Source: Patescibacteria group bacterium (lineage in GTDB: Bacteria; Patescibacteriota; Minisyncoccia; UBA6257; JACRHW01). From it: DNA of 64,000 bases. The notes under the pieces are model-generated. The model was given only the letters and a program-made list of their open reading frames with translations. It had not been told where the DNA came from and searched no databases. The DNA is taken from assembly GCA_028865725.1 (NCBI GenBank), contig JAGWJP010000002.1:40050-104049 (forward strand), written 5' to 3'. The position numbers and the translations under genes were made by a program. Of the stretch, positions 10,691 through 58,220 are shown piece after piece. Position 1 is the first letter of the stretch; each line of letters starts with the position of its first letter.

Positions 10691-10863
10691 CATTTTTCTA
10701 CAGTGACACCGCGTATGCCATGCATCATGCATCATACTATTTAATTATTTATTCCTTATTTATTGCCCTATCGACCTTTCAATATTTTTTATAGCTGATA
10801 TCTGGCATCCCGGTAGAGAATACTTTTATACAAACAACCTGATATACAATACAAAATACTTGG

Positions 10864-15176: not shown

Positions 15177-15485
15177 TTATTTTCCACTTTTTATTTTTAA
15201 TTTGCGTTCGAGAAGAGCAATACGCGCAAGCGCGTCTTCAAATTCATCGCGATAGACAACGTGACGTTTAAGTTCTGCGACATCGCGCGAAACCGTTTCG
15301 ATCTCTGCGTTCAAGTGATGAAGCTCTACTTCTACTTTTGTGAGGCGTGTTTCCACACCATCAAGGCGTGTTTCCACACCATCAAGGCGTGTTTCCACAC
15401 CATCAAGGCGTGTTTCCACACCATCAAATCCTCGCTGAACCATCCCAGCAAGATCATCAAGAGTGATTCGTTTTGTCTTGTTCAT
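15177..15485 (-). CDS. hypothetical coiled-coil protein with tandem heptad repeat DGVETRL x4
   Basis: ORF contains four perfect 21-bp tandem repeats encoding DGVETRL; start taken at MNKTKRITL (15485). Confidence 0.5.
   Translation of the reverse strand: MNKTKRITLDDLAGMVQRGFDGVETRLDGVETRLDGVETRLDGVETRLTKVEVELHHLNAEIETVSRDVAELKRHVVYRDEFEDALARIALLERKLKIKSGK
15343..15426. repeat. 4 perfect tandem copies of a 21-bp unit (aggcgtgtttccacaccatca)
   Basis: Direct reading of the sequence. The repeat is in-frame within the ORF 15177..15485 (DGVETRL x4). Confidence 0.9.
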
Positions 15486-15531
15486 AGTTTTAGTATAGCA
15501 AATTTTTTTTCCCTCAAAAATACCCAATCTC

Positions 15532-16266
15532 CTACTTGAGCGCGGCATCAATTACTCGCTCGAAATCCGAGGGAGGAAGTGCTCCTACCAGTATTTTTCC
15601 ATTAATAAAGAACGTGGGCGTCCCCTCTACTCCTAGCGTGCTTCCGTCTGCTGCGTCAGCCTTGATTTGATCTGCGTGAATATGCTGACTGATACATTGA
15701 CTAAATTGGGTCATATTGAGTCCGGTAGCGTGTGCCCATGCGATGATGTCATCATTCGTCGTAGTGGTAATCGTACCTTCCCCCAACTTGTTTTGCTCTC
15801 CAAAAATACGGTCATGCATCTCCCAAAACTTTCCTTGATCATTCGCGCAGAGGGCTGCTTCTGCATAGGGAACTGCCATTGGGTGAATAGAAAGGGGAAA
15901 ATTACGATACACAAACTTCACCTTGCCCGTATCAATATACTCCTTTTTAAGCGCGGGGAATGTATCCCTCCAAAATACCCTACAAAATGGGCACTCAAAA
16001 TCACTAAACTCAACTACTGTCACTGATGCATTTTTGTTACCGAGCGCCACGCCGCCACGATTCAGTACTTCCATGTCAACCGGCTGCACTGTTGGTGTAG
16101 TGGCACCATGGTCTGGCGAGACGCCTAAATTGTGAACAGAATAATACGCTGCAGAAAAAATAATACTTCCTCCCAAAATCGCGGCAGCAAGAATAAGTAT
16201 ATTTGAAGAATCATTATTGTTTTTTATTTCATTCATAATGAGAGAATATATCTTAGTGTACCACAA
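15532..16266 (-). CDS. DsbA-like thiol:disulfide oxidoreductase (membrane anchored)
   Basis: N-terminal TM helix; CPFC active site (FECPFCRVFW) in a DsbA-like thioredoxin domain. Confidence 0.7.
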   Translation of the reverse strand: MWYTKIYSLIMNEIKNNNDSSNILILAAAILGGSIIFSAAYYSVHNLGVSPDHGATTPTVQPVDMEVLNRGGVALGNKNASVTVVEFSDFECPFCRVFWRDTFPALKKEYIDTGKVKFVYRNFPLSIHPMAVPYAEAALCANDQGKFWEMHDRIFGEQNKLGEGTITTTTNDDIIAWAHATGLNMTQFSQCISQHIHADQIKADAADGSTLGVEGTPTFFINGKILVGALPPSDFERVIDAALK

Positions 16267-16476: not shown

Positions 16477-19400
16477 TTAGAAGCTGAAGTTGCTGACCTG
16501 ACCGTTTATTGGAGTGACCACAATTGGATTGATAGATGCATTAGAAACACCATCATTCCATGAAGCGGCCTGAAGGTTAATCTGGTAAGAGCGTGTGCCT
16601 GTTGTGGTTAACAAGTTTGTTGCGCTACCAAGATTAGCCTTTACGATCAAGTACTGTGTCGAACCCTTTGCAACAGTCCACCCCGTAGAACCATTAAGTG
16701 TCACTACGTAAGTGTTTGTTGATGTTGCGGTCGATGTTCCAAGCGTAGTGGATGGAGCATCGCTACCATACACTGTCAACGCTACGGAAGATGAACTCTG
16801 AAGCAATGAACCTGCCATGCTGAGTGAAACAGACTTCACGACGACATCATGGTTTGCACCCGCGGTGATGTTGAATTGACCAACAATCGATCCGTCAGAC
16901 AAACCTGCTGGTGAAGTGAAGGAAGGTCCTATAGCAGGCACCATTGATGTCTGGTAGATGGTAAACGTTGCTCCGGTGTTTACAGCCAATGCAACGCTTG
17001 CATCTGATCCTGACATGTGGCCTTGTGCAGTGATAGAAGGAATACCTACGTACACTGTATCTGCAGAAGTTGCGCCACCCGTCTGATCGTTCATATCAGC
17101 CACAACATTCAAGTTTATGTAGCTGTTCTGAGGAACATTAAGTGGTGTGCTGAGAGTAAAGGTGGTTGTTGAGCTTGCTGCTGAAATACCAGAAACCGCT
17201 GAACCAACCTGAGTCGTACCGCTCATCAAGCGAAGGTTCTTGATGTCGTTTGCAGATGATGCATGGACATCAACACCCAAAGAGGTGACATCAACAGACT
17301 CGCTGTTGCTCGTCTCTGAAAGCTTGAAGCTTCCAAGAACTACGCCAGAAACTCCCATACCGACCTGTTGGGTCTGTATAGACGGGGTTGCTAATGCAGA
17401 GGTTAATGTACCCGCCGAATTTACCGTGACACTCTGACCGGCAACAGATGTTCCTGTTGCAGTACGAGTGGTATTTGTAGAAGCTCCTGTTCCCTGTGCG
17501 GTTGTCAAACTTACAACCGTCGATGCAGAGGAGGTTGCTCCCGAAACGGTGTCAGCATACACATCTACTACGATCTGACCACCTGTCGCGATTGCGATTG
17601 GTGCAGATGGAGAAACGGTGAATGCCGATGTTGTTACCGTTGCCTGTGTAGAACCAACCTGCGTGCCACCCACCATCACCTTCATATTCTGAAGATGACC
17701 TGCAGTTGAACTTGGGGTAAGCGTAAGGCTTGTTACATTAATGCCTTCTGCAGGACCTGCAGTAAGCGTAAATGAACCCACGCGTACTCCCATTGCACCC
17801 GCCACGGTAGAAATTGAACCCACTGCGTTGTTCTTTGCCGCTACAAACGGTGCAGAAGATGCACTGAGTGCATTTCCTGAATGCGTTGTTGTATCGGTAA
17901 TCGCTGCAAGTGAAGTATATCCCTGACCCGTAATGGATGTGATACTGCCTGTTACGCTACCCGCATACGCAGCAGCAATGTCTGCAATAACCGACAATTT
18001 GCGTGTTGTATTTGCTGGGATAATGTAGTTCAGGTTAGTAAGCGCATTTGCTTTTGACGTTCCCACTGTAGCGCCCGCAGTAACGGTGGTACCAATCTGG
18101 ACACCCTGATCATCTACGAGCTTTAGGTTATTCCATACGGTTGTTTCTGCACCGGAAGTATAACTTCCGATTTGATACGTAAGTGCAGTAATTCTCACAG
18201 GCTCACCATTTGCCTGGAAGTCAAATGTGGCAAGTGTTGCGTTTGTTGCACCTGCTGCAACGTAGTTATTTGGAGATGCTGCATCCTTGTTTACCACAAG
18301 AGTACCTGCATTCACCGTTACTTGTGTCGCAGAGATTGGGAATGATACCTGTGCCAACACTGATGCGCCTACATTGTAGGTCATGTCTGTTGCAACCACA
18401 TCATACGAGCGCTGGATAGTGAACGTCATATGGCGATTCACACCACCAACCACATCTGCGTACACAGAAAGATTTACCGTCTGACCTGAAGCAATCTGTA
18501 AAGGATTCTTGGAGAGGTCAAACACCGCCGTTCCGTCTGCATTCAAGTTTGCGAGTGTTGCACCTACCTGGGTGGTTCCATTCATAAGCTTGATATTTGC
18601 GAGATCGGTTGAAGCATTAATCGTATCATTCTCTGTGAGTTTGATAGACTTCACGCTTACTGCGCTGTTTGCAGAAACAAATGAGAACTGACCTGCCAAG
18701 AAGTTTGTTGTTCCGGCATTTACTGAACCACCTGTTGAAAGGTTGTTAAGGGTCAACGTTGCGAGTGATGGATTTGAAACCGTCACCGCCGTCATCTGGT
18801 TTCCTGTCATTGGGAAGGAGCCTGAGACACTCGTAGAAGCGGTGATATCGGAAGCCGAGTTCACGCCAAATGCGAATGTTTTTGAAGCACCCGTTGTTGC
18901 AATATCAGCAGCTACTGTGATCAAGCGTGTTTGGCCTGCTTTCACAGTAAACAACCCCGAGCTGAGAGAGAACTGTACTTTTCCATTTGACAACCCGATG
19001 TTTGTGGCGAGCACGGTGCTACCATCCATCAAGTATACATTCGATACGTCATTATCGCTCGAAAGTCCCGAACGATATACGTTCATTGCGGTCACAGTGG
19101 TGTCGCTTGAACCGCCCACAACTTTCAACACCATGAAAGGAATTTTACTTCCTCCTGCAGGGAAGTTCCCTGCTGCAGGGTTTGATGCATCGACAGAAAC
19201 TGTCAATCCATTTCCTGTTGGAGCTGGAGTTGTCGTTCCTGTGGTCGTTGTTGTTGTCGTTCCTGTGGTCGTTGTTGTTGTCGTTCCTGTGGTCGTTGTT
19301 GTTGTTGCGGTCATAGACGCAAATGCCTTCTGCGAAATAGGACCGAAATAACCTGCTGCAGGAGATACTCCCTTTGCAGCTTGCCATTTTGCTACTGCCG

Positions 19401-19752
19401 CTTTGGTCAAAGAACCAAAGTATCCTGTCGCAGGCACTGCGAGATAGCCATCGCTATGCAATACCCCTTGTAAGCAGGTGACATCATTACCACGTGAACC
19501 TACGGTGAGGCTTCGTGAGAATGAGCATGCTGCAGATGCCGTACTTGCACCTGTTGATGCGCTGAGCTGCGCTTGTAACGCAGTGATCTGTTGCAACAAC
19601 GATGCAATCTGAGCCTGAAGCTCTTCAACAGTTGCAGCTTTCGCAACAGTTGGAAGCGCTAATGCTGCCCCGGAAAGCCACATCGCAGTGGTCAATGAAA
19701 GTCCGATTGCGATTACTTTCGCAGCAGTCTTTTTGAATTTGTTGTTACCCAT
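16477..19752 (-). CDS. large secreted surface protein: signal peptide, N-terminal peptidoglycan-binding domain, poly-Thr linker, ~850-aa Ig-like beta-rich repeat region
   Basis: Start at MGNNKFKK (19752) with signal peptide; PG_binding_1-like segment (GSRGNDVTCLQGVLHSDGYL...GYFGSLTKAAVAKWQ); (T/G)-rich linker; long Ser/Thr/Gly/Val-rich beta repeats. Confidence 0.7.
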   Translation of the reverse strand: MGNNKFKKTAAKVIAIGLSLTTAMWLSGAALALPTVAKAATVEELQAQIASLLQQITALQAQLSASTGASTASAACSFSRSLTVGSRGNDVTCLQGVLHSDGYLAVPATGYFGSLTKAAVAKWQAAKGVSPAAGYFGPISQKAFASMTATTTTTTGTTTTTTTGTTTTTTTGTTTPAPTGNGLTVSVDASNPAAGNFPAGGSKIPFMVLKVVGGSSDTTVTAMNVYRSGLSSDNDVSNVYLMDGSTVLATNIGLSNGKVQFSLSSGLFTVKAGQTRLITVAADIATTGASKTFAFGVNSASDITASTSVSGSFPMTGNQMTAVTVSNPSLATLTLNNLSTGGSVNAGTTNFLAGQFSFVSANSAVSVKSIKLTENDTINASTDLANIKLMNGTTQVGATLANLNADGTAVFDLSKNPLQIASGQTVNLSVYADVVGGVNRHMTFTIQRSYDVVATDMTYNVGASVLAQVSFPISATQVTVNAGTLVVNKDAASPNNYVAAGATNATLATFDFQANGEPVRITALTYQIGSYTSGAETTVWNNLKLVDDQGVQIGTTVTAGATVGTSKANALTNLNYIIPANTTRKLSVIADIAAAYAGSVTGSITSITGQGYTSLAAITDTTTHSGNALSASSAPFVAAKNNAVGSISTVAGAMGVRVGSFTLTAGPAEGINVTSLTLTPSSTAGHLQNMKVMVGGTQVGSTQATVTTSAFTVSPSAPIAIATGGQIVVDVYADTVSGATSSASTVVSLTTAQGTGASTNTTRTATGTSVAGQSVTVNSAGTLTSALATPSIQTQQVGMGVSGVVLGSFKLSETSNSESVDVTSLGVDVHASSANDIKNLRLMSGTTQVGSAVSGISAASSTTTFTLSTPLNVPQNSYINLNVVADMNDQTGGATSADTVYVGIPSITAQGHMSGSDASVALAVNTGATFTIYQTSMVPAIGPSFTSPAGLSDGSIVGQFNITAGANHDVVVKSVSLSMAGSLLQSSSSVALTVYGSDAPSTTLGTSTATSTNTYVVTLNGSTGWTVAKGSTQYLIVKANLGSATNLLTTTGTRSYQINLQAASWNDGVSNASINPIVVTPINGQVSNFSF
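19232..19303. repeat. 3 perfect tandem copies of a 24-bp unit (gtcgttcctgtggtcgttgttgtt) encoding the poly-Thr linker
   Basis: Direct reading of the sequence; encodes TTTTTGTT repeats in the 1116-aa protein. Confidence 0.9.
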
Positions 19753-20323
19753 AATATGCTGTTTGTTTATTTTTATACGATTTGATTTTGCAATTCGACC
19801 TCGCAAAACAAATCGTCTTATTAACAATTGCTTTAATTACTTTTCTGGATGAGCCAAGAGCATGATAAGCTTTGAACCTACCATCGACCTTGAAAGTGGC
19901 TCATTATTTCAAAATAATAAAATAATTAGGAAATACCAACTGTTTATCCTTTTCATTCCTTCCTTATTTGTTTTTCAAATACCGTTCGTTGCGATCGTAT
20001 TTTTTCTTTTCTCCTCACATCTATTGTACTACAGAAATATGTACACGAGATGTGAAAAGAAAAATGTCCCCTAACCTAAAAAATGGGATGGCAGGAAAAA
20101 TCTAGCAATTTGCTTGATTTGTCCAGACCCAATTATTATAATCCATTTTACCAAAAAAAGCAACCCCTTTTCAAGCTTTTTTCTGTGGAAAACCATCCCC
20201 TTCATTTTTCACAAAAAAACTTTTCATCACTCTTCTTTAATACAACGAGATTGTTCCTCGCTACGTTACACTCTCTTCTTATTTCTATTTCAATTCTTTT
20301 AAGCCGCAGTTGGTAAACTCTTT

Positions 20324-27851: not shown

Positions 27852-27924
27852 AAGAAAAATGGGCCCTTAGCTTAGTTGGTAGAGCGCGTCATTTGCAATG
27901 ACGAGGTCAGGAGTTCGAATCTCC
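27852..27924 (+). tRNA. tRNA-Ala (anticodon TGC)
   Basis: 73-nt cloverleaf folded by hand: acceptor GGGCCCT/AGGGTCC with the G3:U70 Ala identity pair, anticodon loop TTTGCAA, T-loop GGAGTTCGAATCTCC, discriminator A. No encoded CCA. Confidence 0.85.
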
Positions 27925-27939
27925 TAGGGTCCACTCGAG
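27920..27939. repeat. direct repeat copy 1 (gtccactcgagatttgtgaa), overlapping the last 5 nt of tRNA-Ala
   Basis: 19/20 identity with 34366..34385. Confidence 0.7.
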
Positions 27940-28082
27940 ATTTGTGAACCAAATCGCGGAGGAATTGAAAGTTTTGAGAAGTATGATGGAGTCATGACAT
28001 ATTGGACAGGTGGCGACCTGAATGTTATGTTTTGTTTAGAACATTAGATAAATTAATAACGAATGGGGAGGTCCTGTTTCTG

Positions 28083-28568
28083 ATGGAGCAGTATTGGATG
28101 CCAAAGAGATTAGACGTTAAGAATTTACAATTATGTTTAGGTGCATATATCCCAACACATATTTTAATTAGATTGGTAGGTTCTGCTGGCGGAACTGTGA
28201 AAGTTGATCAAGACCTAAGGGGAAAGACTTTACGTTTTAGAAAAGATAAAACAGGCCTCTACCTATTTATTGACGCACAAGAAGTATTTCATTTTCCTCT
28301 CAAGGATTACCAAAAGGGTTTTTCTCTTGGATACGAAAGGATTGAGCCCACAGAAGATGGTGTTGGAAGAATGATCGTGTTAAGTCGCGAGGTTGATCCA
28401 TATGCTCCAAACCTTCCAGAACCAAGATGGTCATTTTTGAGGATTGTACTGGACAATCATCTTATGGAGATCTTTTTTGAAGGCAGGGTTAATCTAAAAT
28501 TTCATTCGTGGTGGGTTAAACCACGTTGGAAATACTGGGTTATTGATGGGCCTGATAGGAAATCTTAA
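28083..28568 (+). CDS. hypothetical protein (AT-rich orphan ORF beside tRNA-Ala)
   Basis: ORF with RBS (ggggagg) 11 nt before ATG at 28083; visibly lower GC (~39%) than neighbours; followed by a hairpin terminator. Confidence 0.45.
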   Translation: MEQYWMPKRLDVKNLQLCLGAYIPTHILIRLVGSAGGTVKVDQDLRGKTLRFRKDKTGLYLFIDAQEVFHFPLKDYQKGFSLGYERIEPTEDGVGRMIVLSREVDPYAPNLPEPRWSFLRIVLDNHLMEIFFEGRVNLKFHSWWVKPRWKYWVIDGPDRKS

Positions 28569-28573
28569 TTTTC

Positions 28574-28603
28574 GCACCACGCATTAAAGGGTGCTTTTTT
28601 ATT
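28574..28603. terminator. hairpin + T-run, likely bidirectional terminator between convergent genes
   Basis: gcacc-acgcattaaag-ggtgc followed by tttttt; A-run on the other side. Confidence 0.5.
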
Positions 28604-28617
28604 TTTTTACAATCAAA

Positions 28618-31017
28618 TTACTGCTGTGATTCCTTAAGAATCTTATTCAATTGATTGCGCGTGAGAGGTCCTACCACTCCTACCTGCGGGATATTGTATT
28701 TTTTCTGAAAAGCTTGGACTCCCACCTGCGTGAGAGATCCAAAATATCCCGTAACCGGACCATGATATACCCCGATTATTTTTAGAAATAATTGCAAGCC
28801 TATCAATTCACTTCCCAATGAACCAATCTCCATATGACTACGGAAAACGGGAATGTACTGAAGAAGTGAAGATGTTGATGTTTCTGTCGGAACGGGTGCA
28901 GAAACGGTTGGTGTGGATGTCGAAGGAAAGAAGGAAGGCGCTTCTTCTTCGTAAAGATAGGGTTCCACAACGGCTTTCTGATAGGTAATGCGGTGTGAAA
29001 TAATACGTGAAGGAATATTGAGGCTTGAATAATATTGAACATATACATTATATGTTCCTTCTTTGTCAGGAAGAACGATAGTGCCAAACGGGCCATAGGG
29101 AAGGCGCGGTACATCAGTAAACTGTGGATCAAGCGATACTGCATACCACGAAACAAAATTCGGATCTGCGTTCAATGTAAGCGCAAGCACTCGCTCCGAA
29201 GTACTTGTAGCGCCATCATCAATCGCAAAATCAAGCGGAAGACGCACTCCTCCGCTCACCACTACTCCCTCCGGAGTAGCATAGGCTGCACCGCCTTTTG
29301 CGGATCCAAACAGTGCAAAAGTAGAAAATGAGGATGCGGTACAAGTTACTGTTCGTGCTGTCGTGTCGACCGCGCAGGAAGATAGCGGCGTCCACGCTCC
29401 CTCTGTATAGTGATAGATCGCGAGCGTATTTTCATTGACATTGAGAATATCACTTAACGAATATCCTAGTGTCACGGAAACGTTATGAGCAAATGAAGAG
29501 AGCTCGGTTTGCGAATCGGATAATGCCTTCAGATCATATGCATATGTTCCTATCGGCACCATATCTGTGGGAGTTGAAAGCGCGCTGAGTACCGTGGATT
29601 TCAAAAGCGCCTTGATTTGAAAATAATTGGACGTTCCCGCATAGCCTGATGGAACCGCGAGAGTAATGGTGGTTCCGCCGTGAGTGAGGCTTAATATGCC
29701 TCCTCCTGCGGTAATGGTTCCTAAGGATTGATTTTGTACCGATGCACCCCCCGCACACCCGGTGGTTGTAAATGTTCCATCTGTCCCCGTAGTGGTATTT
29801 CCCATCAAATCAGTCGAAACTACCTTATAGTGATAGGTGGTACACGCTACAAGATTTGAAATAGTTGCCGTATGAGACACGACACGCGGTGAAAGATCGA
29901 TTTCCGTCGTCGCCGCGCTGTAGGATGTGTCGGGACTGTAGGACACTTTGGTTGAAGAAAGCGAATCAGTCATCCACCCGATCGACACCGATGTCTGCGA
30001 CGGGGTTGCGTTCACCAATGAAATAACCGGCGCGGACGTCACAATCGAATATCCGCTTTGCGTCGCAGTTGCAGTATTTCCCGCATCATCAATCGCATTC
30101 ACAATAAGATCTCCGTCGGAATTGATACGAATCGTGCAGTCGACTGTCTTGCTATCCGTTTGCGTACAAACAAAATTACTCGTATCGACAGTAGACTGCG
30201 CATCAATAGATACCTGTGATGCACGCACGTCGTTATTGTCTGTCACATGAATCGTCGTATCGGTAATCGGAGCACCCGAAACTAATGTAGGCGCAGTAAT
30301 GATTACTACCGGTAGAATCGTATCAATCACGTATCCGCCTTCCACATCTTCGGTCATTGCCTTTGGACCGTTTACGGCATCAATTACTAAATTTCCGCTT
30401 GACGTGATGCGAATCGTGCAGTCGACGGTAGAGGTATCGGTCTGCGTACAAGAAAAATTGCTCGTGCCGGCAGTAGAAGAAGCGCTTACGGTTACGTTAG
30501 ACGCGGCCACTGAAACATCATCAGTAACACGAATCGTCGTATCGGTAATTGTAGAACTTGAAATCTTCGTTGGAGGAGTAATGTGAATTGAAGGACCGGG
30601 ATGCATAAGTATATAACCGCTTTGTGTCTGTGTCGCTGTATTATGCGCTGCATCAGTCGCATCAACAATAACATTTCCTGACGTATCTATTTCAATAGTG
30701 CAATCGACTGTCTTGCTGTCGGTCTGCACACAAACATAATGGTGTGTGAAAGCAGTACTCGATGCATCGACCAGTACATTTGCCGCAAAAATAGCATTGT
30801 CGTCCGTGACATGAATCGTGGTATCCGTAATATCATCGTTGGAATTTAATGTAGGCGCAGTAATCATAACCACAGGCGGCGTGGTATCAATCACGTATCC
30901 GCTTTGTATTTGGGTAAAACTGTTTCCTGCGTCATCCATTGCCTTCACTATCACATTTCCGCTTGACGTGATGCGAATCGTGCAGTCGACGGTGTAGAGG
31001 TATCGGTCTGCGTGCAA
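28618..31017 (-). CDS. giant repeat surface protein, C-terminal portion (Ig-like ~95-aa repeats, FN3-like domain, C-terminal peptidoglycan-binding domain); frame-shifted relative to upstream portion
   Basis: Continues the same ~95-aa repeat (TDTTIHVTDN...SNFSCTQTDTSTVDCTIRITSSGNLVI) as the ORF 30951..34253. Ends with a PG_binding_1-like segment (GVYHGPVTGYFGSLTQVGVQAFQKKYNIPQVGVVGPLTRNQL). Confidence 0.6.
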   Translation of the reverse strand: MHADRYLYTVDCTIRITSSGNVIVKAMDDAGNSFTQIQSGYVIDTTPPVVMITAPTLNSNDDITDTTIHVTDDNAIFAANVLVDASSTAFTHHYVCVQTDSKTVDCTIEIDTSGNVIVDATDAAHNTATQTQSGYILMHPGPSIHITPPTKISSSTITDTTIRVTDDVSVAASNVTVSASSTAGTSNFSCTQTDTSTVDCTIRITSSGNLVIDAVNGPKAMTEDVEGGYVIDTILPVVIITAPTLVSGAPITDTTIHVTDNNDVRASQVSIDAQSTVDTSNFVCTQTDSKTVDCTIRINSDGDLIVNAIDDAGNTATATQSGYSIVTSAPVISLVNATPSQTSVSIGWMTDSLSSTKVSYSPDTSYSAATTEIDLSPRVVSHTATISNLVACTTYHYKVVSTDLMGNTTTGTDGTFTTTGCAGGASVQNQSLGTITAGGGILSLTHGGTTITLAVPSGYAGTSNYFQIKALLKSTVLSALSTPTDMVPIGTYAYDLKALSDSQTELSSFAHNVSVTLGYSLSDILNVNENTLAIYHYTEGAWTPLSSCAVDTTARTVTCTASSFSTFALFGSAKGGAAYATPEGVVVSGGVRLPLDFAIDDGATSTSERVLALTLNADPNFVSWYAVSLDPQFTDVPRLPYGPFGTIVLPDKEGTYNVYVQYYSSLNIPSRIISHRITYQKAVVEPYLYEEEAPSFFPSTSTPTVSAPVPTETSTSSLLQYIPVFRSHMEIGSLGSELIGLQLFLKIIGVYHGPVTGYFGSLTQVGVQAFQKKYNIPQVGVVGPLTRNQLNKILKESQQ

Positions 31018-32330
31018 GAAAAATTGCTCGTGCCGGCGGTTGTGGAAGGATCCACAATGACGCTTGCCGCGCTTATTGCGTAATTATCCGTCACGTGAAT
31101 CGTCGTATCGGTGATAGCAGAACTTGAAGCTGTGGTCGGTGCTATGATTGCTATGCTTGGCGGCGCAGTCTCGATCACATAATGATCCTGATTTTCTTGC
31201 GCACTGTTTGAAACGCTATCCGTCGCCTTGATTACTAAATTTCCGCTTGACGTGATGCGAATCGTGCAGTCGACGGTAGAGGTATCGGTCTGCGTGCAAG
31301 AAAAATTGCTCGTGCCGGCGGTTGTGGAAGGATCCACAATGACGCTTGCTGCGCTTATTGCGTAATTATCCGTCACGTGAATCGTCGTATCGGTGATAGC
31401 AGTATTAGAGACCTTCGTACTCGGCGTAATAGTAATTATCGGAGGAACTCCTTCAATTACGTAATCATTTTCTGACTGGCTTGAAGTATTTCCAAGCAAG
31501 TCTGATGCCTTAATCGTCACATTTCCGCTTGAAAGCACATCGATTGAGCAATCAACGGTTTTGCTGTTGGTTTGGCTGCAGAGAAAACTCCCTACACTTG
31601 CCGTCGTAGAGGTACTAAGTGTCACATCGCTCGAAGATAATCCGCTATTATCGGTAATATGAATGAATGTATCCGAAATCGTATCGCGACTTGACTTTGT
31701 CGGTGCCGTAATCGTAATCGACGGAGGAATCGCATCGATCACATATCCGCTTTTGGTTTCTGTTGCCGCATTTCCCGCATTATCCGTCGCCTTGATTACT
31801 AAATTTCCGCTTGACGTGATGCGAATCGTGCAGTCGACGGTAGAGGTATCGGTCTGCGTGCAAGAAAAATTGCTCGTGCCGGCGGTTGTAGAAGGATCCA
31901 CAATCACATTCATCACATTGATGCCGGAATTCAAGGTCGGCAAATCGAGCACATGAATTGTGGTATCAATTATAGTTGCAGTGGAGCTTGTCGTCGGTGC
32001 TGTAATCGTAATCGACGGAGGTGTTGTTTCGATGCGATACCCTGTTTCGGTAGCTGTATTTACATTACCACTTTCATCGGTTCCTTTAATGACAAGATAC
32101 CCACTTGAAGTAATATGAATCGTACAGTCGACAACTCCGATACTTGTCTGCGTACAAGAAAAATTGCTCGTGCCGGCAGTTGTGGAAGGATCCACAATCA
32201 CATTTGAAACAAGAATATGCGTATTTACCACGTGGACGGTCGTATCAGTAATCGCAGTTGTAGAAATCTTTGTAGGAGCCGTAATGGTAATTGCAGGAGG
32301 CGTCGTATCAATCACCTGGAGCGTACTTGA
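30030..32330. repeat. array of ~9 near-identical ~285-bp direct repeats inside the giant surface-protein gene
   Basis: The same long strings (e.g. gtgatgcgaatcgtgcagtcgacggtagaggtatcggtctgcgt...aaaaattgctcgtgccggc) recur at ~30404, 30961, 31248, 31806 and 32150. Confidence 0.7.
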
Positions 32331-34079
32331 ATTCGATGTTCCGCCTCCTGGGGTAGATGTAAATACTGTAATAACATGTGTTCCTGAAACAGCAATATAC
32401 GAGGAAGGGATCGCAGCTTCAAGATGATGAGTGTTCACATACGTGGTCGTCAGCGTATCTCCGTCGATCTTTACTATCGAGCTTGTTGCATAGCCTGTTC
32501 CATCCACATCGAGGGTAAACGATAAACTTCCCGCTTCAATAGTTGACGGGGAGATGGAGGAAATCGTTGGAGTCGGATTATTTATAGTAAACATCCTCAA
32601 TCCCGATGTCCCACCCCCGGGAGTAGGATTAAAAACGCTTATGCTTTTTGTTCCCGCCGCAAGCAAACTGCTTGAGGCAACTGTTGCAGTCAGTTGTGTC
32701 GAATTCACATATGCAGTGCCCAGATCAGTTCCATCAAGACGTACGATAGAACCAGAAACAAAATTAGTTCCTGTAAGAGTGATTGTTGTATTACCATCAC
32801 CAACCGTTGCCGAGTCTGGCAACACCGTTGTAAAGACAGGGACAGGATTATTTACGATAAATTCCTGAGCATTTGACTGTCCGCCCCCTGGGGTTGGATT
32901 TAGCACAGTTACATTAAACGTCCCTGCGAGTTCAAGAAACGATGCAGAAACAGTTGCAGTAAGTTGGGTGCCTGTCACATAGGTAGTAGGAAGCGCATTG
33001 CCTTCAAAATATGCCGTAGAACTCGCATTGAAATTTGTTCCAATAAGTGTCAGCGTAAACGTACTATCTCCCGCATTTTTAGAAGGAGGAGAAATACTAG
33101 AAAGAGAAGGAACTGGATTAGCAACCGTTACGGTCGGAGATGTGGCAAGAGCAACTTCTGTCCCTGCTGCATTGATACGTGTTTTTGTAAGAAACGTGCT
33201 TTTTCGTCCCGTCCGTGGCGCGAGCGCCCCGCTTGCTCCTCCTCCCGACCCATAGGTAAACACAACCGTCTGTCCACCAGTAAGGCTCAATAGATTAACT
33301 CTTACTACATTATCTCCAGGAAATGTTGCGACGCCTGGACCAATCATAATATCGTCAACAAATATGTTAACATGATCGAGTGCTGAATTATGAGCAATAC
33401 GAAACCCATAACTTGCAATTGATGTCCGTGTTCCGGTAAGCGCAAGCGTTTCATAAGTCCAGGTATTAGCAGACAACGCAGGGATGTTTAGTATTGCGAC
33501 GGGGCTCGCGAGATTATTATTGTCGTCATATGCAAACTGAAGCCGATTTGCGGCAACTGCCGCACTCGTGCGAATCCAAAACCCTATCGTCGTATATCCA
33601 GACCAATTCTGCGTACTAATGTTTTTATAAAAAACATTACCGGTTGATTCATTACCATTTTGACACTCAATCGATGCAGTTCCTTCATAATACGTTGCAG
33701 TTGATGTATCGAGCCCATTAGTACAGGCCGTTCCCGCAGACCAACCCAAACTCGAATCCGCCGTATCTAGTATGGTTGCTATCATTCCCGCGCCCGAGGT
33801 CACTGTCGTATACCCTGCTGTTCCACTAGTAGATGTAGGCGTACTCCAATCAGATGGTATTGTAACCGCGACATCACCACTACTCATTGTTTCCGCCGCC
33901 GTAAACGTAAAAACAAGCGCATTACCTGTGGTGCTGGCAATCACTGTTGAAGGCGTTACACTATTTGTTCCTGAACCATCGGATGCACGTGCAAATCTTT
34001 GAATCCACCCCAACCACCCCACTGCTCCTATTACCATCATTACGCCTATGGAAAAAAGTATAAAAAACTTTTTCTGCAT
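30951..34079 (-). CDS. giant repeat surface protein, N-terminal portion (signal peptide, 3 IPT/TIG-like repeats, 5 Ig-like ~95-aa repeats); interrupted by a 2-nt frameshift near 30993
   Basis: Start at MQKKFFILF (34079) with signal peptide/TM; repeats of the NPxPxISSISP...TTYV...NPTPGGGxS type, then ~95-aa repeats. Reading frame is lost at ggtGTagagg (30991-31000) compared with other copies (ggtagagg). Confidence 0.6.
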   Translation of the reverse strand: MQKKFFILFSIGVMMVIGAVGWLGWIQRFARASDGSGTNSVTPSTVIASTTGNALVFTFTAAETMSSGDVAVTIPSDWSTPTSTSGTAGYTTVTSGAGMIATILDTADSSLGWSAGTACTNGLDTSTATYYEGTASIECQNGNESTGNVFYKNISTQNWSGYTTIGFWIRTSAAVAANRLQFAYDDNNNLASPVAILNIPALSANTWTYETLALTGTRTSIASYGFRIAHNSALDHVNIFVDDIMIGPGVATFPGDNVVRVNLLSLTGGQTVVFTYGSGGGASGALAPRTGRKSTFLTKTRINAAGTEVALATSPTVTVANPVPSLSSISPPSKNAGDSTFTLTLIGTNFNASSTAYFEGNALPTTYVTGTQLTATVSASFLELAGTFNVTVLNPTPGGGQSNAQEFIVNNPVPVFTTVLPDSATVGDGNTTITLTGTNFVSGSIVRLDGTDLGTAYVNSTQLTATVASSSLLAAGTKSISVFNPTPGGGTSGLRMFTINNPTPTISSISPSTIEAGSLSFTLDVDGTGYATSSIVKIDGDTLTTTYVNTHHLEAAIPSSYIAVSGTHVITVFTSTPGGGTSNSSTLQVIDTTPPAITITAPTKISTTAITDTTVHVVNTHILVSNVIVDPSTTAGTSNFSCTQTSIGVVDCTIHITSSGYLVIKGTDESGNVNTATETGYRIETTPPSITITAPTTSSTATIIDTTIHVLDLPTLNSGINVMNVIVDPSTTAGTSNFSCTQTDTSTVDCTIRITSSGNLVIKATDNAGNAATETKSGYVIDAIPPSITITAPTKSSRDTISDTFIHITDNSGLSSSDVTLSTSTTASVGSFLCSQTNSKTVDCSIDVLSSGNVTIKASDLLGNTSSQSENDYVIEGVPPIITITPSTKVSNTAITDTTIHVTDNYAISAASVIVDPSTTAGTSNFSCTQTDTSTVDCTIRITSSGNLVIKATDSVSNSAQENQDHYVIETAPPSIAIIAPTTASSSAITDTTIHVTDNYAISAASVIVDPSTTAGTSNFSCTQTDTSTPSTARFASRQAEM

Positions 34080-34365
34080 TTTCAAAAGAAAAAAAACGCA
34101 CATTATAATCGCCTTTATAATACAACCATCCACATATTTCGTCACTGTGCATATTTTGCACAAATAACCTTCCCCGAGCGGGGCAGCCTCGGGGTATACC
34201 TTGATCCCCTTCGGCACAAGGAATACACCTGTCGCGCGCCCCTTCGGGCGCATGGTATGCGACCAGTCAAGTTTTTTAGATCACTCGCTTCGCTCAGGGC
34301 TTCTGATTCATCCCCCGCCCTTACGGGCGGGAGATTCTCCTCAGGTCTAATAAACTTCTACCGGA

Positions 34366-34385
34366 GTCCACTCGAGATTTCTGAA
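34366..34385. repeat. direct repeat copy 2 (gtccactcgagatttctgaa)
   Basis: 19/20 identity with 27920..27939, which overlaps the tRNA-Ala 3' end. Confidence 0.7.
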
Positions 34386-34412
34386 AATAAAAACACACCG
34401 CGAGGGGTGTGT
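34381..34412 (-). terminator. Rho-independent terminator for the 34426..34935 gene
   Basis: On the minus strand: acacacc-cctcgc-ggtgtgt followed by ttttattttc. Confidence 0.55.
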
Positions 34413-34425
34413 ACGTGGCATCTCT

Positions 34426-34935
34426 CTAAGTCTCTTCTACCATCTCAATGCAGCCTGATTTTTTGAGCATGTCGTTCATGACCTCAGGAAGCGTCGGGCA
34501 ATGTCCTGCGCGCATTTCATCATTCAATATTCTAAAGTATCGATGCATATGCACAAAAGATTTCGGGGGGAAAGAAATAACCTTATCAGAAACACTTTCA
34601 AAAGAATTCCGAACTTCTTCTATGATTGCTGGCAACCCTGGAAACTCGCGCTGTCGTTTTTCACTTTTGAGAATGATCTTTCCTGAAAAATCTTTGTAAA
34701 TAGCCACTAATGTACCGGTCCCTACAACTTCCCCGGTCTCTTGTTCCACAAACTCGCACACAGTGTACTGTAATGCGGAATTAAGACCGGAACTTACCTC
34801 AAGATGATAATAGATGCGCCGCCTGAGATCTTCTGAAGTTGCGATGTGTACAAAACATGCCTGCAGTGCATCTGATGGATGCAGGCGAGCACACATCTTT
34901 GTGCCATTTGTGGCTTCCATTGCCGTGGATACCAA
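34426..34935 (-). CDS. hypothetical protein (169 aa)
   Basis: Uninterrupted ORF with its own terminator; no family recognised. Confidence 0.45.
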   Translation of the reverse strand: MVSTAMEATNGTKMCARLHPSDALQACFVHIATSEDLRRRIYYHLEVSSGLNSALQYTVCEFVEQETGEVVGTGTLVAIYKDFSGKIILKSEKRQREFPGLPAIIEEVRNSFESVSDKVISFPPKSFVHMHRYFRILNDEMRAGHCPTLPEVMNDMLKKSGCIEMVEET

Positions 34936-45022: not shown

Positions 45023-47419
45023 TCATAAATTTTCAAGCGCCTTACGCGTCAAAGGACCCACCATGCCAATGGGTGCAATACCGTGTTCAGTTTGAAACGT
45101 GCGGACGCCTGCGGCAGTAAGCGGCCCGTAATATCCGGTGATAGGGCCCGTATAATAGCCGCCTCGAGTAAGGTATATTTGAAGATTCGTTACCTCATCT
45201 CCCCGCGAACCCATACTTATATTCTGAGAGAGTGATAACATCTTCGTCTGCGACAAAAGCGAAGAGATATCATCGTGTGAAATGAACGTATTCAGCACAC
45301 CGCGCGTCAAAGGACCCACTATGCCAACGGGTGCAATACCGTGTTCGGCTTGAAACGCACGGACGCCTGCGGCGGTAAGCGGCCCGTAATATCCGGTGAT
45401 AGGGCCCGTATACACATGGAGATGAGCGAGGAGAGTTTGGAGTACAACCACACTATCACTCTTAGCGCCCTGAGAAAGAAACGTGGTAAAAATGAGATTC
45501 CGCGTAGATGAAGAGACTGATTCATTCGGTAACACTACCTCCGGAGTCGCGGTTTTTACTACAGGCTCTTCAGTTGATTCAGGAAGTGAAACAGGAGACT
45601 CCACTATCGTTTTTGAAATCGGTAGGGTGGTAGAAGAGGCAGAAGATGAAGAGACTGATTCATTAGTATTTTCTACGCCGGAAAAAGAACTGCCTCCTCC
45701 GACAAAATGAACAAATGTAACCTTGCTTTGATCCGTTGTTGCAGAAACTTCGGTGCCTCTGTTTCCTACGGAATCTTGAAAATCAATCGTAAAAGGGATC
45801 TGACCCGTGGCATCGCTTGAAACAAGAGTATACGATGTTGTCCATGTATTTCCTGTAGTATTGGTAGAAGCTACACTATGCCCCAGAAGCGTTACAGTAG
45901 GCGTTGAGATAGATTCGCTTGCAGTAAACGTAAGCGTCACGGAGTCACCCGCCACAGCATGGCTCGGAATAGTATTATTTGATCCAATGGAAACCCCTGA
46001 AAGCAAAGGAGCCTGACCGTCTGAAAGTGCAATCGACTGATCGTGGGGAACAAGAACATTCGTCACCCCGTTTGCGTCGGTAACCGCGTTTTCATCGGCA
46101 TAAAGACCCAGCGCAGCTGTGGTCGATGCAGAGGTATTACTCCATGGAGAACCTGAAAATGTAAGCTCAACCTTCCAAGGAGATGAGGAATTTATGATGG
46201 TGGCGCTTGATGCCGTAAGCGGCGAGACGCCTCCACCGTTTTGATCTACGTGCCAATCAGCTGCCGATATCGCAGAAAGCGTAGAACTTGTATCCGTAAG
46301 GTTAACAAGGAGTGTTGAGGGAGACGTAATGGAAGCAGAATCTACAGTAATAATGGGAGAAAAAATTTGAACGCGCTGATTGCTAAAATCAACCACATAT
46401 GCAAGCGAAGAGCTTGAAAATGCGAGAGCAACAGAACCGCTAAACTGACCATCTCCGGAGCCAGACGATCCGAATGTGGAGAGATAATTTCCCGCGCTGT
46501 CGAACACTTCGATGCGATTGTTGCTGTAATCTGAGACATAAACACCAGAAGAGCTCGAAATCGCAACTCCGAACGGTAATGCAAATTGACCGTTTCCGCT
46601 TCCTGAAATCCCTTGTTGGCATTGCGAAGTACAAACTTCAAACGAAGATGCACCGTCCTTTACCCCCCACCCAAAGGTAGATATGAAATTTCCCGCGCTG
46701 TCGAACACTTCGATGCGATGGTTACTCTCATCAGCAACATAGACATCTGATGAACTCGAAAGAGCAATACCCGTAGGACTTTGTAACTCTCCCGTGCTTG
46801 TTCCTAGCGTTCCAAATTGAGAGAGATAATTTCCCGCGCTGTCGAACACTTCGATGCGATTATTAAAATGATCAGAAACAAATAGTTGCGAGGAACTTGA
46901 AAGAGCAATATTTGCCGGACGGCTTAGTTGTCCGTTTCCAGACCCTGCAATGCCTGCTTGACAGTTTGACGTACAGATTTCAAATGTCGAAGATCCATTG
47001 CTCACGCCCCACCCGAACGTAGAAATAAAGTTACCTGCGCTATCGAACACGTCGATGCGATTGTTATTGTAATCCACAACATACATATCGGAAGAACTTG
47101 AAAAAGCAATACCTGTCGGAGAATTCATCTGACCGGCACCTGAGCCCAAAGATCCAAATTGGGAGAGATAATTTCCCGCGCTGTCGAACACTTCGATGCG
47201 ATTGTTGACGTTGTCCGCAACGTACACTTGAGAAGAGGTGGAAATGGCAATCTCACGCGGACCGCTAAACTGGCCGCTTCCGGATCCGGATGAGCCAAAT
47301 TTTGAGAAATAGGTATAAGAACTCGCCGCATGTACAGTATCCGCGATACCAAAAGTGCCCACCATGCCCATGGCAACAAAAAAAATCAACAGTATGATAC
47401 GACGCGCACGAAAATACAT
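45023..47419 (-). CDS. secreted NHL-repeat beta-propeller protein with Ser/Thr-rich stalk and two C-terminal peptidoglycan-binding domains
   Basis: Signal peptide; six NHL repeats (NNRIEVFDSAGNYLSQFG); two PG_binding_1-like copies (GPITGYYGPLTAAGVRAFQAEHGIAPVGIVGPLTR). Confidence 0.75.
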   Translation of the reverse strand: MYFRARRIILLIFFVAMGMVGTFGIADTVHAASSYTYFSKFGSSGSGSGQFSGPREIAISTSSQVYVADNVNNRIEVFDSAGNYLSQFGSLGSGAGQMNSPTGIAFSSSSDMYVVDYNNNRIDVFDSAGNFISTFGWGVSNGSSTFEICTSNCQAGIAGSGNGQLSRPANIALSSSSQLFVSDHFNNRIEVFDSAGNYLSQFGTLGTSTGELQSPTGIALSSSSDVYVADESNHRIEVFDSAGNFISTFGWGVKDGASSFEVCTSQCQQGISGSGNGQFALPFGVAISSSSGVYVSDYSNNRIEVFDSAGNYLSTFGSSGSGDGQFSGSVALAFSSSSLAYVVDFSNQRVQIFSPIITVDSASITSPSTLLVNLTDTSSTLSAISAADWHVDQNGGGVSPLTASSATIINSSSPWKVELTFSGSPWSNTSASTTAALGLYADENAVTDANGVTNVLVPHDQSIALSDGQAPLLSGVSIGSNNTIPSHAVAGDSVTLTFTASESISTPTVTLLGHSVASTNTTGNTWTTSYTLVSSDATGQIPFTIDFQDSVGNRGTEVSATTDQSKVTFVHFVGGGSSFSGVENTNESVSSSSASSTTLPISKTIVESPVSLPESTEEPVVKTATPEVVLPNESVSSSTRNLIFTTFLSQGAKSDSVVVLQTLLAHLHVYTGPITGYYGPLTAAGVRAFQAEHGIAPVGIVGPLTRGVLNTFISHDDISSLLSQTKMLSLSQNISMGSRGDEVTNLQIYLTRGGYYTGPITGYYGPLTAAGVRTFQTEHGIAPIGMVGPLTRKALENL

Positions 47420-57858: not shown

Positions 57859-58148
57859 AAAGAAATAAATTAACCATATTTTCGGAATATCACATTAATA
57901 CCATATGCCGTTGATTAATGATACAGACACATGATAACGCCTGGCAACCAAACCTGCTCATACTTTCCCGCATTTTTTCAAACCACCTGTAAAAAAGTCT
58001 TTCATACCATCCTATTGGTGGTCCCAACGGGATCGGTCACAGGTTCTCGCTTCGCGAGCCCCGCAACCCCGCCTCGCATGCACTGCGTGCATATGCTCCG
58101 GCTTTCAATTCCCGACGCAAGCCAAGCAGTTGGCTTGCTTTGGTACTG

Positions 58149-58220
58149 TGGTCCCAACGGGAATCGAACCCGTATTTACGCCTTGAAAGAGCGCTGTCCT
58201 AACCATTAGACGATGGGACC
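58149..58220 (-). tRNA. tRNA-Glu (anticodon TTC)
   Basis: Reverse complement folds by hand: acceptor GGTCCCA/TGGGACC, anticodon loop CTTTCAA, T-arm ACGGGTTCGATTCCCGT, discriminator A. Closely resembles canonical bacterial tRNA-Glu. Confidence 0.8.

Follow-up and report, generated by a model that had tools for sequence, protein, structure and literature searches.

A short direct repeat at the 3′ end of a tRNA-Ala gene bounds a 6.4-kb block that may have been inserted in a Patescibacteria genome

Islands and islets made by tyrosine integrases reportedly include a class in which crossing over takes place at the very 3′ terminus of a tRNA gene, an account that Williams is said to have given in Nucleic Acids Research in 2002. 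We compare such systems with a locus in a 64,000-nt window, the whole stretch of DNA analyzed here, which comes from an uncultured Patescibacteria group bacterium (GCA_028865725.1, contig JAGWJP010000002.1, positions 40,050-104,049, forward strand). The locus shares with tRNA-linked islands the boundary at the 3′ end of a tRNA gene, on the far side a short direct repeat of that end, the apparent displacement of the original downstream DNA, and a cargo of the accessory surface-protein type. Unlike those islands, it has no detectable internal integrase, no deviant composition, and only 5 nt of the tRNA in its repeat. A second group, which includes the cis-mobilizable elements (CIMEs), such as those of Streptococcus thermophilus, consists of att-flanked remnants of integrative elements without a recombination module. 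The block described here likewise has att-like direct repeats at both ends, contains no recombinase or transfer genes, and would need an enzyme acting in trans. The difference from CIMEs is that no related autonomous counterpart with this site turned up, either in the window and the relatives or in viral contigs searched with the 20-mer and the trailer motif.

Other known systems share fewer of these features. Elements of the IMEX type, which use host Xer at dif, are also integrated DNA without an integrase of their own between repeats of a short site, but the site here is a tRNA end with its trailer, and the 20-mer does not have the two-arm architecture of dif. We rejected this class on the overlap of the repeat with the tRNA end and on the GC skew and gene orientation, which agree to the left and right of the block, with no change of skew sign or switch of gene-strand bias across it. 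In other lineages, the 13-nt core of the repeat lies within a repeated 70-270 nt intergenic unit that separates small genes, much as REP/BIME sequences, MITEs, and integron attC sites do, whereas the window has the short core alone. A transposon or MITE with a target-site duplication was rejected because the block lacks terminal inverted repeats (best inverted end match 7, against 6.5 ± 1.0 in shuffles), has no transposase match, and is present as a single copy. An integron cassette array or CALIN was rejected as well, there being no attC-like palindrome with a GTTRRRY core at either boundary and no integron integrase detected. Modules bounded by GTTAGAACC are present in other lineages and absent from the window.

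According to the accessible part of one report (PMC9897764), tRNA gene fragments mark integrated elements, with a displaced piece of the tRNA 3′ end at the distal end of the inserted DNA. As far as that part of the account describes such markers, they are matched closely by a second tRNA gene in the window, tRNA-Glu, which has a displaced partial copy of its own 3′ end ≈110 nt downstream (58020-58036); the displaced piece of tRNA-Ala, with its 5 nt, does not have the length to count as a fragment of a tRNA. The tRNA-Glu scar indicates that recombination at tRNA 3′ ends has occurred before in this genome. The block between the repeat copies (27949-34365, ≈6.4 kb) comprises a small ORF, a large frameshifted surface-protein gene, and a structured leader (Table 1).

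Table 1 Features of the tRNA-Ala locus, in window coordinates
Feature	Coordinates	Strand	Evidence or remarks
tRNA-Ala(UGC) gene, without encoded CCA; left anchor of the block	27861..27933	+	ARAGORN; Rfam tRNA model, 70.9 bits; same tRNA upstream of HtrA in L084, L086, and L089
Left repeat copy GTCCACTCGAGATTTGTGAA: last 5 nt of the tRNA and 15 nt of trailer	27929..27948	+	Sequence comparison
Small hairpin (CAGGTGGCGACCTG) with T-rich tail, between left repeat and small ORF	28007..28036	+	Terminator-like site
Small ORF (ORF161); alternative starts TTG 28032, ATG 28098	28083..28568	+	Conserved, patchy Patescibacteria family
Hairpin GCACC...GGTGC and T run, separating the convergent small ORF and large gene	28575..28607	.	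Read directly from the sequence
3′ ORF of large gene, 799 aa: 94-aa tandem domains, FN3-like stretch, C-terminal PG_binding_1	28618..31017	-	PG_binding_1, E 3.2e-10, residues 737-790
Array of 282-nt (94-aa) tandem repeat units in large gene	30005..32315	-	Repeat families D1-D6
5′ ORF of large gene, 1100 aa as listed	30951..34253	-	Translation; promoter-like site 34145-34117
+2 (AC) insertion, approximate site, splitting large gene into two frames	31003..31006	-	Alignment with three sister repeat units
GC-rich, hairpin-laden noncoding leader, right end of the block	34086..34365	-	Folding
Right repeat copy GTCCACTCGAGATTTCTGAA	34366..34385	+	Also in NCBI contig JAGWUQ010000003.1; two other sequencing runs have it in Logan contigs
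Presumed ancestral tRNA-Ala trailer continuation AATAAAAAC with hairpin CACACC-GCGAGG-GGTGTG	34386..34412	.	Terminator site; alignment to L089 and L086 trailers
169-aa hypothetical gene, first outside the right repeat; then a 360-aa hypothetical gene and the ATP synthase operon	34426..34935	-	

The two copies of the 20-mer agree at 19 of 20 positions and begin with the final five bases of tRNA-Ala, GTCCA, which make up the entire share of the tRNA in the repeat. The initial annotation had recognized this repeat and placed its right copy correctly, but it put the left copy at 27920-27939; the true position is 27929-27948, so the earlier start coordinate falls within the T-arm. When up to three mismatches are allowed, the right copy is the sole match to the left one in the window, and the pair is the only 19/20 direct pair there that is neither tandem nor within a gene. 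The claim that such a match is unexpected by chance in 64 kb proved to be overstated, since 0.15 direct pairs of this quality are expected per 64-kb window and such a pair turned up in 6 of 60 Markov-random windows. What is rare is the placement at a tRNA end, with an expectation of ≈3e-4 for a copy that starts no more than 10 nt from any of the window's three tRNA 3′ ends. No resemblance to the tRNA body is seen in the 68 nt preceding the right copy (p = 0.43), and this sharp boundary argues for the duplication of a short core rather than a decayed copy of the tRNA. In the two other sequencing runs, the right junction is 100% identical and only its occupied form was seen.

The right copy and the flank that follows it from 34386 are collinear with the sequence directly 3′ of tRNA-Ala(UGC) in a family-level relative, L089. 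The flank of the right copy aligns to the L089 trailer with a score of 22.5 (shuffles, 3.1 ± 1.6; 0 of 1000 reach it), whereas the present flank of tRNA-Ala scores 3.0, equal to the shuffle level. A second relative, L086, has 16 consecutive bases, CGAGATTTCTGAAAAT, identical between its trailer and the right copy with its outside flank. On the 5′ side, L084, L086, and L089 all keep the tRNA-Ala-HtrA-ClpB-Wzy synteny; on the 3′ side, each has different genes, and none of the three has a second copy of the trailer within 5-9 kb. An empty site, as the initial annotation had suggested, should show the tRNA followed directly by the sequence from 34386 with a single repeat copy. L089 does have the homologue of this sequence after its tRNA, in one copy, but the genes farther on differ from those of the window. 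The nearest relative in the collections searched reaches just 64% HtrA identity, too distant to serve as a true empty site.

Because the relatives have one copy and the right flank matches their tRNA-Ala trailer, insertion between the tRNA and the old trailer is likely, and we favor, with modest confidence, a reading in which ≈6.4 kb of DNA entered between tRNA-Ala(UGC) and its original trailer and terminator and duplicated a 20-bp site. This reading is carried by the repeat and where it sits on the tRNA, by the homology between the right flank and the trailers of relatives, by the single copy in those relatives, and by the absence of recombinase matches. From them we infer that insertion rather than another rearrangement was the source of the duplication, as well as the site-specific nature of the recombination at tRNA-Ala and the direction of the event. 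The original observation of a repeat-bounded islet at tRNA-Ala is thereby confirmed in part, and its interpretation as an integration footprint is partly supported, by the flank match and the single copy, while the missing integrase, the recurrence of the core elsewhere, the host-like composition, the native type of cargo, the chromosomal gene family of the small ORF, and the small tRNA share of the repeat count against it.

The most likely mechanism would be one reciprocal, conservative recombination of the kind that integrases carry out at tRNA 3′ ends: a circular DNA with its own copy of the 20-bp site would have joined the chromosome at the resident copy, and the insertion would have duplicated that site. 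The recombinase would have been encoded outside the block and, as far as the scanned ORFs show, outside the 64-kb window. Neither the three ORFs of the block nor 33 further ORFs of the window matched a Pfam family of integrases, serine recombinases, or transposases, in agreement with the earlier statement that the islet contains no integrase, and the noncoding stretches of the block are too short to conceal a recombinase remnant. The block would therefore now be either an immobile remnant or reliant on an enzyme whose gene lies elsewhere.

The islet is modest and mostly ordinary, with one curious conserved motif. The small ORF (GC 0.385, GC3 0.315) is AT-richer than the remainder of the block. 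Its initial description as an AT-rich reading frame (≈39% GC) on the strand opposite to its neighbors is accurate, but it is not an orphan: it has 207 clusters of homologues at 45-75% identity, none of them found to be of phage or viral origin. Judged by these homologues, it is a member of a conserved chromosomal Patescibacteria gene family that is patchily distributed. The motif is the 13-nt core of the repeat, CGAGATTTCTGAA, which has a chance expectation of ≈0.04 per 1.4 Mb by our own arithmetic and is found in distant lineages both beside homologues of the small ORF and beside tRNA genes. The exact 13-mer is found in L137 (one copy), in a Sungbacteria locus (L090-L093, L102; two copies), and in the sequence trailing tRNA-Ala in L086; L104 and L108 have it with one mismatch. 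In L140 and L175, a version with two to three substitutions lies ≈160 nt upstream of the ORF homologue, similar to the ≈135 nt in the window.

This recurrence makes a conserved functional motif, with no insertion at all, a rival reading. GTCCACT and the 13-mer would then be conserved Patescibacteria blocks that selection maintains in several intergenic regions, for instance as a site bound by a protein, as a signal for processing, or as a piece of a terminator module. In other lineages, the 13-mer belongs to a conserved 70-80 nt unit with 13 distinct copies, which all share the strand of the small-ORF homologue and in several cases abut tRNA 3′ ends, and GTCCACT is kept in that unit ≈41 nt after the 13-mer. 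Since the core occurs there in other arrangements, the two copies in the window may have been selected rather than duplicated; each of the two enclosed genes has one copy upstream, so the repeat could be a shared operator, and the palindromes within the core (CTCGAG and TTTCnGAAA) would be in keeping with such a role. We nevertheless consider this reading unlikely. Both window copies fuse the two blocks identically, with first five bases that are set by the tRNA and that independent selection would not be expected to copy, and the flank of the right copy matches the tRNA-Ala trailer far beyond the motif. The copies are also opposite in orientation relative to the two genes, and the window resembles the 70-80 nt unit over just ≈24 nt (E = 2.4). 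According to the initial annotation, integration would be called into question if the second copy belonged to a conserved motif found elsewhere. The core comes close to this, recurring as it does in other lineages in different settings, but the complete 20-mer arrangement was seen nowhere other than in the window, with just two copies in 64 kb.

Insertion at tRNA-Ala must also be weighed against an ordinary rearrangement at a synteny break, which we judge to be somewhat less probable still than a selected motif. The 3′ side of tRNA-Ala would in that case be a variable surface-protein locus that received the block by homologous or illegitimate recombination (uptake from a relative, or translocation), and the 20-bp duplication would have arisen incidentally when short homologies were joined, with no dedicated recombinase involved. 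Each relative does differ after tRNA-Ala, L089 having a 1210-aa PA14 surface protein there, and the neighborhoods of the small-ORF family are generally not conserved. The absence of recombinase matches and terminal inverted repeats fits this account, as do the cargo type and the host-like composition of the block, whose GC content is 45.5% versus 45%, with a GC3 of 0.39-0.42 and a large-gene GC3 that matches the flanking genes. The tetranucleotide check that had been proposed for the islet reveals no deviation, the distance of 0.0165 being equal to the value for the stretch at 13-17 kb, where another large surface-protein gene lies. Yet a clean 20-bp duplication at a tRNA 3′ end, with the trailer intact beyond it, is the standard product of site-specific integration and would be unusual for illegitimate recombination, and the same kind of scar is present at tRNA-Glu.

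The large gene was initially described as encoding a secreted repeat protein of ≈1900 aa with a C-terminal peptidoglycan-binding domain. PG_binding_1 is indeed present, but the gene consists of two overlapping ORFs separated by a +2 frameshift, where CCTCTACACCGTCGAC aligns with CCTCT--ACCGTCGAC in three sister repeat units; one repeat interval measures 284 nt and the others 282 nt. Translation of the 5′ ORF probably begins at Met51 or Met59 (34103 or 34079), immediately ahead of the signal or anchor peptide (MQKKFFILFSIGVMMVIGAVGWLGW...ARA). Two more PG_binding_1 surface-protein genes in the window resemble the large gene, which suggests a cargo of a type native to this genome. For the same organism, the NCBI assembly is interrupted at two points within the large gene, window positions 31067 and 34161, and the join between the two flanks passes through the repeat array where that assembly breaks. 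Chance similarity of unrelated 20-mers, or a misjoining of the flanks through this array so that no single 6.4-kb interval exists, could draw on these breaks, on the closeness of the frameshift to one end of NCBI contig JAGWUQ010000005.1 (≈62 nt), and on the chance expectation of such pairs per window, but is very improbable in view of the rarity of the tRNA-end placement, a flank homology that is independent of the repeat, the location of both copies inside independent public contigs well away from their ends, and the two contig ends, which hold the 5′ and 3′ parts of one gene built from the same 94-aa repeat.

Terminators had been reported on both sides of the element. The hairpin at 28575-28607 instead lies inside it, between the convergent genes, and is missing from the terminator scan because its 11-nt loop exceeds the limit of the scanner; the hairpin at 34393-34412 acts on the minus strand as the terminator of the 169-aa gene outside the block. 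The leader has no Rfam family above threshold, and no DNA resembling it occurs in any locus retrieved. Folded on the minus strand together with the right repeat (34086-34392), it reaches a minimum free energy of -112.9 kcal/mol, against -91.4 ± 5.7 kcal/mol for shuffles (z = -3.8). At the other end of the block, the small hairpin at 28007-28036 may be the present terminator of the tRNA-Ala transcript.

The interval at tRNA-Ala(UGC) is flanked by two direct copies of a 20-mer that agree at 19 positions and are spaced 6437 bp apart from start to start. The initial annotation had recognized this pair correctly but had placed its left copy at 27920-27939, whereas it lies at 27929-27948; given the position of tRNA-Ala(UGC), the repeat therefore opens with the final five bases of the tRNA. 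The accompanying claim that a 19/20 match is unexpected in 64 kb is too strong, as the expected number of such direct pairs in a window is 0.15, and one turned up in 6 of 60 Markov-random windows. Among the 19/20 direct pairs of the window, the one at tRNA-Ala is the only one outside tandem or in-gene repeats, and no further match to the 20-mer at up to three mismatches is found elsewhere in the window. The chance expectation of a pair with a copy starting within 10 nt of any of the three tRNA 3′ ends is ≈3e-4. A decayed second tRNA-Ala in front of the right copy was considered and rejected: global alignment there performs like shuffles (p = 0.43), and Rfam shows no tRNA.

We compared the locus with those of three family-level relatives, L084 (GCA_016217555.1), L086 (a JGI metagenome), and L089 (GCA_964388055.1), which have in common the order tRNA-Ala(UGC), a small ORF, HtrA, ClpB, a 234-260-aa protein, a Wzy_C protein, and more genes. 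ClpB identity with these relatives is ≈82%; the next-best HtrA in the collections searched is 64% identical, with no close relative among them. In the 5-9 kb available 3′ of tRNA-Ala in the three relatives, there is no homolog of the interval's small ORF (28083-28568) or large surface-protein gene, nor of the hypothetical 169-aa gene that is the first outside the right repeat copy, the 360-aa gene, and the ATP synthase operon. The outer flank of the right copy, however, aligns to the L089 tRNA-Ala trailer with a score of 22.5, against 3.1 ± 1.6 for shuffles (0/1000), whereas the flank now following the tRNA scores 3.0 (shuffles, 3.4 ± 1.7). Second copies of the tRNA end or trailer are absent from all three relatives. 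This is the pattern expected had the block entered between the tRNA and the trailer and terminator that originally followed it, duplicating 20 bp. Because the genes past the terminator differ in each genome, the comparison serves as a proxy for the empty site and not as a true empty site. A search for the latter through HtrA in species-representative genomes returned identities of ≤55%, and these genomes are uninformative because tRNA-Ala(GGC) arrays replace tRNA-Ala(UGC) in them.

Most simply, one conservative recombination at the 20-bp site would have placed the block between tRNA-Ala and the ancestral trailer, and we favor this reading with modest confidence. If true, it would be a documented case of a Patescibacteria genome acquiring genes in the 3′ flank of a tRNA, and it would mean that hot spots of this kind exchange large, cell-wall-anchored surface proteins although no integrase resides there. 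Patescibacteria have tiny genomes, and their surface proteins are thought to mediate host-cell attachment. The variable region after tRNA-Ala in L089 (1083-4715) holds a PA14-domain surface protein of 1210 aa that converges on the tRNA, which may mean that variable surface-protein genes are generally accommodated at this locus. The tRNA-Ala(UGC) gene has no encoded CCA in the window (27931-27936) or in L084 (GTCCACT...) and has one in L086 and L089 (GTCCACCA...); both repeat copies in the window have the CCA-less form.

An unlikely alternative is that a selected motif occurs twice here, with no insertion at all. The repeat core, the 13-mer CGAGATTTCTGAA, occurs exactly in the trailer of L086, in two copies at a Sungbacteria locus (L090-L093, L102), and as a single copy in L137; L104 and L108 have it with one mismatch. 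By our own arithmetic, the chance expectation is ≈0.04 per 1.4 Mb. A rearrangement at the synteny break that was not site-specific is a doubtful explanation; in its favor, the 3′ side of tRNA-Ala differs in every genome compared. The inner ends of the interval have no homology in any fetched locus. Chance similarity or misassembly is very improbable, since both copies lie well interior to their respective NCBI contigs and, at the right copy, Logan contigs of two further sequencing runs extend into the interval at 100% identity, so that the repeats are not assembly products. The window comes from a Patescibacteria metagenome-assembled genome whose HtrA, ClpB, and flanking genes match GCA_028868355.1 at 100% identity. 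That public assembly is fragmented here, with JAGWUQ010000005.1 ending at window position 31067, in the repeat array, and JAGWUQ010000003.1 at 34161, within the leader of the large gene; the linkage of the flanks, the count of 282-nt units, and the frameshift all depend on assembly through repeats.

Features of the tRNA-Ala locus, compared trailers, and related elements (window positions unless a locus is named)
Feature	Position	Strand	Remarks
tRNA-Ala(UGC)	27861-27933		
Left repeat copy	27929-27948		20-mer GTCCACTCGAGATTTGTGAA
Small hairpin	28007-28036		T-rich tail
Small ORF	28083-28568	+	Alternative starts 28032, 28098
Hairpin and T run	28575-28607		Between convergent small ORF and large gene
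Large gene, ORF of 799 aa	28618-31017	-	
Large gene, ORF of 1100 aa	30951-34253	-	Overlaps 799-aa ORF
Right repeat copy	34366-34385		One mismatch versus left copy (G to C at position 16)
Outer flank of right copy			AATAAAAAC, then hairpin CACACC...GGTGTG
Window, from right copy, after GTCCA			CTCGAGATTTCTGAAAATAAAAACACACC-GCGAGG-GGTGTGT
L089 tRNA-Ala, after GTCCA			CCAATTCAGATTCGTGAAAAATAAAAACACACC-ATAATG-GGTGTGTG
L086 tRNA-Ala, after GTCCA			CCATAACGAGATTTCTGAAAATGAAC...
Further large PG_binding_1 proteins	16477-19827; 45023-47419		
Intergenic element, 70-270 nt	L092 8576-8885, 9655-9836, 10532-10712		Also L104, L108, L111, L136-L140, L147, L175
tRNA-Glu(UUC)	58148-58220	-	
Displaced partial copy of tRNA-Glu 3′ end	58020-58036 versus 58150-58166		With CCA; ≈110 nt downstream

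The DNA enclosed by the repeats (27949-34365) holds the large gene, which is split into two ORFs by a +2 insertion (AC) at ≈31003-31006, in one 282-nt (94-aa) tandem unit. That unit reads CCTCTACACCGTCGAC, three sister units read CCTCT--ACCGTCGAC, and one interval of the array is 284 nt, not 282. The insertion lies ≈62 nt from the end of contig JAGWUQ010000005.1, and the frameshift may be a true pseudogenizing or phase-variable change or else an assembly error. Besides IPT/TIG-like repeats and about ten 94-aa units, the protein has an FN3-like stretch and, at its C terminus, a PG_binding_1 domain (E 3e-10); its N-terminal domain has only 17 homologs, at ≤57% identity and in unrelated contexts. 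The initial ≈58 codons of the 1100-aa ORF are probably non-coding and coincide with GC-rich hairpins; a promoter-like site is located at 34145-34117, and a signal or anchor peptide plausibly begins at Met59. As RNA on the strand of the large gene (minus), the non-coding leader (34086-34392) is significantly stabler than shuffles (z = -3.8). It has three strong, tetraloop-capped GC hairpins, and the ATG of the listed ORF is covered by one of them. Neither an Rfam family nor similar DNA in the fetched loci was found for it; the only Rfam hit was a sub-threshold one to CRISPR-DR9, which a single hairpin produced and which reached 23 bits where 45 are required. The description of the islet as bracketed by terminators is half right, in that the right-side hairpin, CACACC...GGTGTG, is on the minus strand the terminator of the outside 169-aa gene.

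The reported absence of an integrase holds: integrase, serine recombinase, and transposase families are missing by Pfam from the interval ORFs and from 33 further window ORFs. With no recombinase gene left in either set, the block would be a remnant or reliant on an enzyme encoded elsewhere. A transposon was rejected because no terminal inverted repeats lie just inside the duplication, and a dif/IMEX element because GC skew is unchanged. A phage or viral origin was also rejected, as the 20-mer, the trailer motif, the core of a 70-nt unit associated with the 13-mer, and the small ORF are unmatched in viral contigs; among PHROG families, none fits the small ORF, either of the flanking hypothetical proteins, or the large protein in its N-terminal part. 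The interval is host-like in composition (45.5% GC), and GC3 of the large gene (0.39-0.42) is like that of the flanks, with only the small ORF being AT-richer. At 0.0165, its tetranucleotide distance comes 6th among 116 windows but is equal to that of the 13-17 kb region, which contains another large surface-protein gene; PG_binding_1 surface-protein genes are common in this genome and raise the tetranucleotide deviation by themselves. The two further PG_binding_1 surface proteins in the window indicate that the cargo of the interval is of a native type, and the syntenic block of the relatives contains a conserved counterpart to one of the two. One of these two genes carries NHL repeats and internal repeats of 141-684 nt. 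Short tandem arrays (15342-15428, 19228-19307) are also present, of 21-nt units in a small ORF at 15177-15551 and of 24-nt units in the 16477-19827 gene.

Overall, the arrangement is like that of a tRNA-linked genomic islet. Unlike a tRNA-linked genomic island, however, the interval has neither an integrase nor a deviating composition, and the relatives give an empty-site proxy only. On the features tested, it does not qualify as an IMEX, a transposon, or an integron cassette; it fits best with att-flanked remnants that lack a recombinase (CIME-like), a class that is loosely defined. The window locus is an ordinary islet that has probably decayed.

The small ORF, described in the initial annotation as an orphan, is no such thing: across Patescibacteria lineages its homologs form 207 clusters at 45-75% identity, and a library of representatives yields 133 clusters at 50% identity. 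Conservation is strong, yet the family is small and patchy, with no assignment in Pfam, NCBIfam, or PHROG. Its product is predicted to fold mostly into beta-strands, and structure searches gave no convincing functional match. The neighbors of the homologs are housekeeping genes that are unconserved across lineages. In 20 of 80 metagenome loci, some of them redundant, a tRNA gene lies within 700 nt of the homolog, usually downstream and convergent, and at least 10 different anticodons are represented.

In the loci named above where it recurs, the 13-mer belongs to a conserved unit of 70-80 nt, ...GAACC(YS)-CGAGATTTCTGAA-ATAGAAACGGCGATTGATG-hairpin-AAAAGTCCACTAnTGTG, which accompanies the small-ORF homolog in at least seven distinct loci. 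A profile search recovered 13 distinct copies, all on the strand of the homolog, several of which run directly up to a convergent tRNA (Gly, Leu, Lys, Ile) at its 3′ end. The link of the motif with tRNA flanks and the small-ORF family is real in the loci examined. No consensus RNA structure is predicted for the unit, and loci fetched through HtrA have no clear copy of it, with two weak partial matches (E 2.4, 5.8). The window has only ≈24 nt in common with the unit (E = 2.4); GTCCACT stands ≈41 nt after the 13-mer in the unit and directly before it in the window. The window also has none of the GTTAGAACC-bounded modules that surround the homolog in some lineages.

In those lineages, a repeated intergenic element (70-270 nt), which has GTTAGAACC at its boundaries and ends in ...CGAGATTTCTGAA...AAAAGTCCACTAnTGTG, sets small genes apart in a cassette-like fashion and frequently sits right against a convergent tRNA gene, of varying identity, at its 3′ end. 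It has no Rfam match and no predicted consensus structure. Loci L134 and L147, from related genomes, share three upstream genes and the small-ORF homolog and diverge exactly after GTTAGAAC(C/T)TC, L134 continuing into CGCCTTTTGTG and tRNA-Val and L147 into a 250-nt element and tRNA-Leu; the point of divergence is a precise rearrangement breakpoint. In L092, tRNA-Gly(CCC) adjoins a second copy of its 5′ half, 78% identical (10745-10798, 10801-10854).

The strong but patchy conservation of the family among unconserved neighbors, the tRNA genes near about a quarter of its loci, and the recurrent unit beside it raise the improbable but broader idea that GTCCACT/CGAGATTTCTGAA (13-20 nt) is the recombination site of an undescribed Patescibacteria cassette system. 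Such a system would move the small ORF and co-traveling genes, large surface-protein genes for example, to various tRNA 3′ flanks, its recombinase being encoded elsewhere or, conceivably, being the small all-beta protein. The short motif is the more interesting lead, being common to distant lineages and tied to tRNA genes and one small-protein family; whether a recombination or a regulatory site, it would offer a handle on the shuffling or control of accessory genes in reduced genomes.

A second scar in the window, at tRNA-Glu(UUC), provides context that we count as supporting insertion at tRNA-Ala. The displaced piece of the tRNA 3′ end, GGTCCCAACGGGATCGG, is preceded by TGGT (ACCA on the tRNA strand), and a GC-rich segment with the hairpin GCAAGCCAA-GCAG-TTGGCTTGC lies between it and the tRNA gene. 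The scar matches no Rfam family. Its intervening segment has a homolog in a like scar at tRNA-Trp in L114, and a like architecture is seen at tRNA-Lys in L112. The three scars look like a family of miniature att-flanked remnants, and the hairpin stems across those of L112 and L114 appear to covary.
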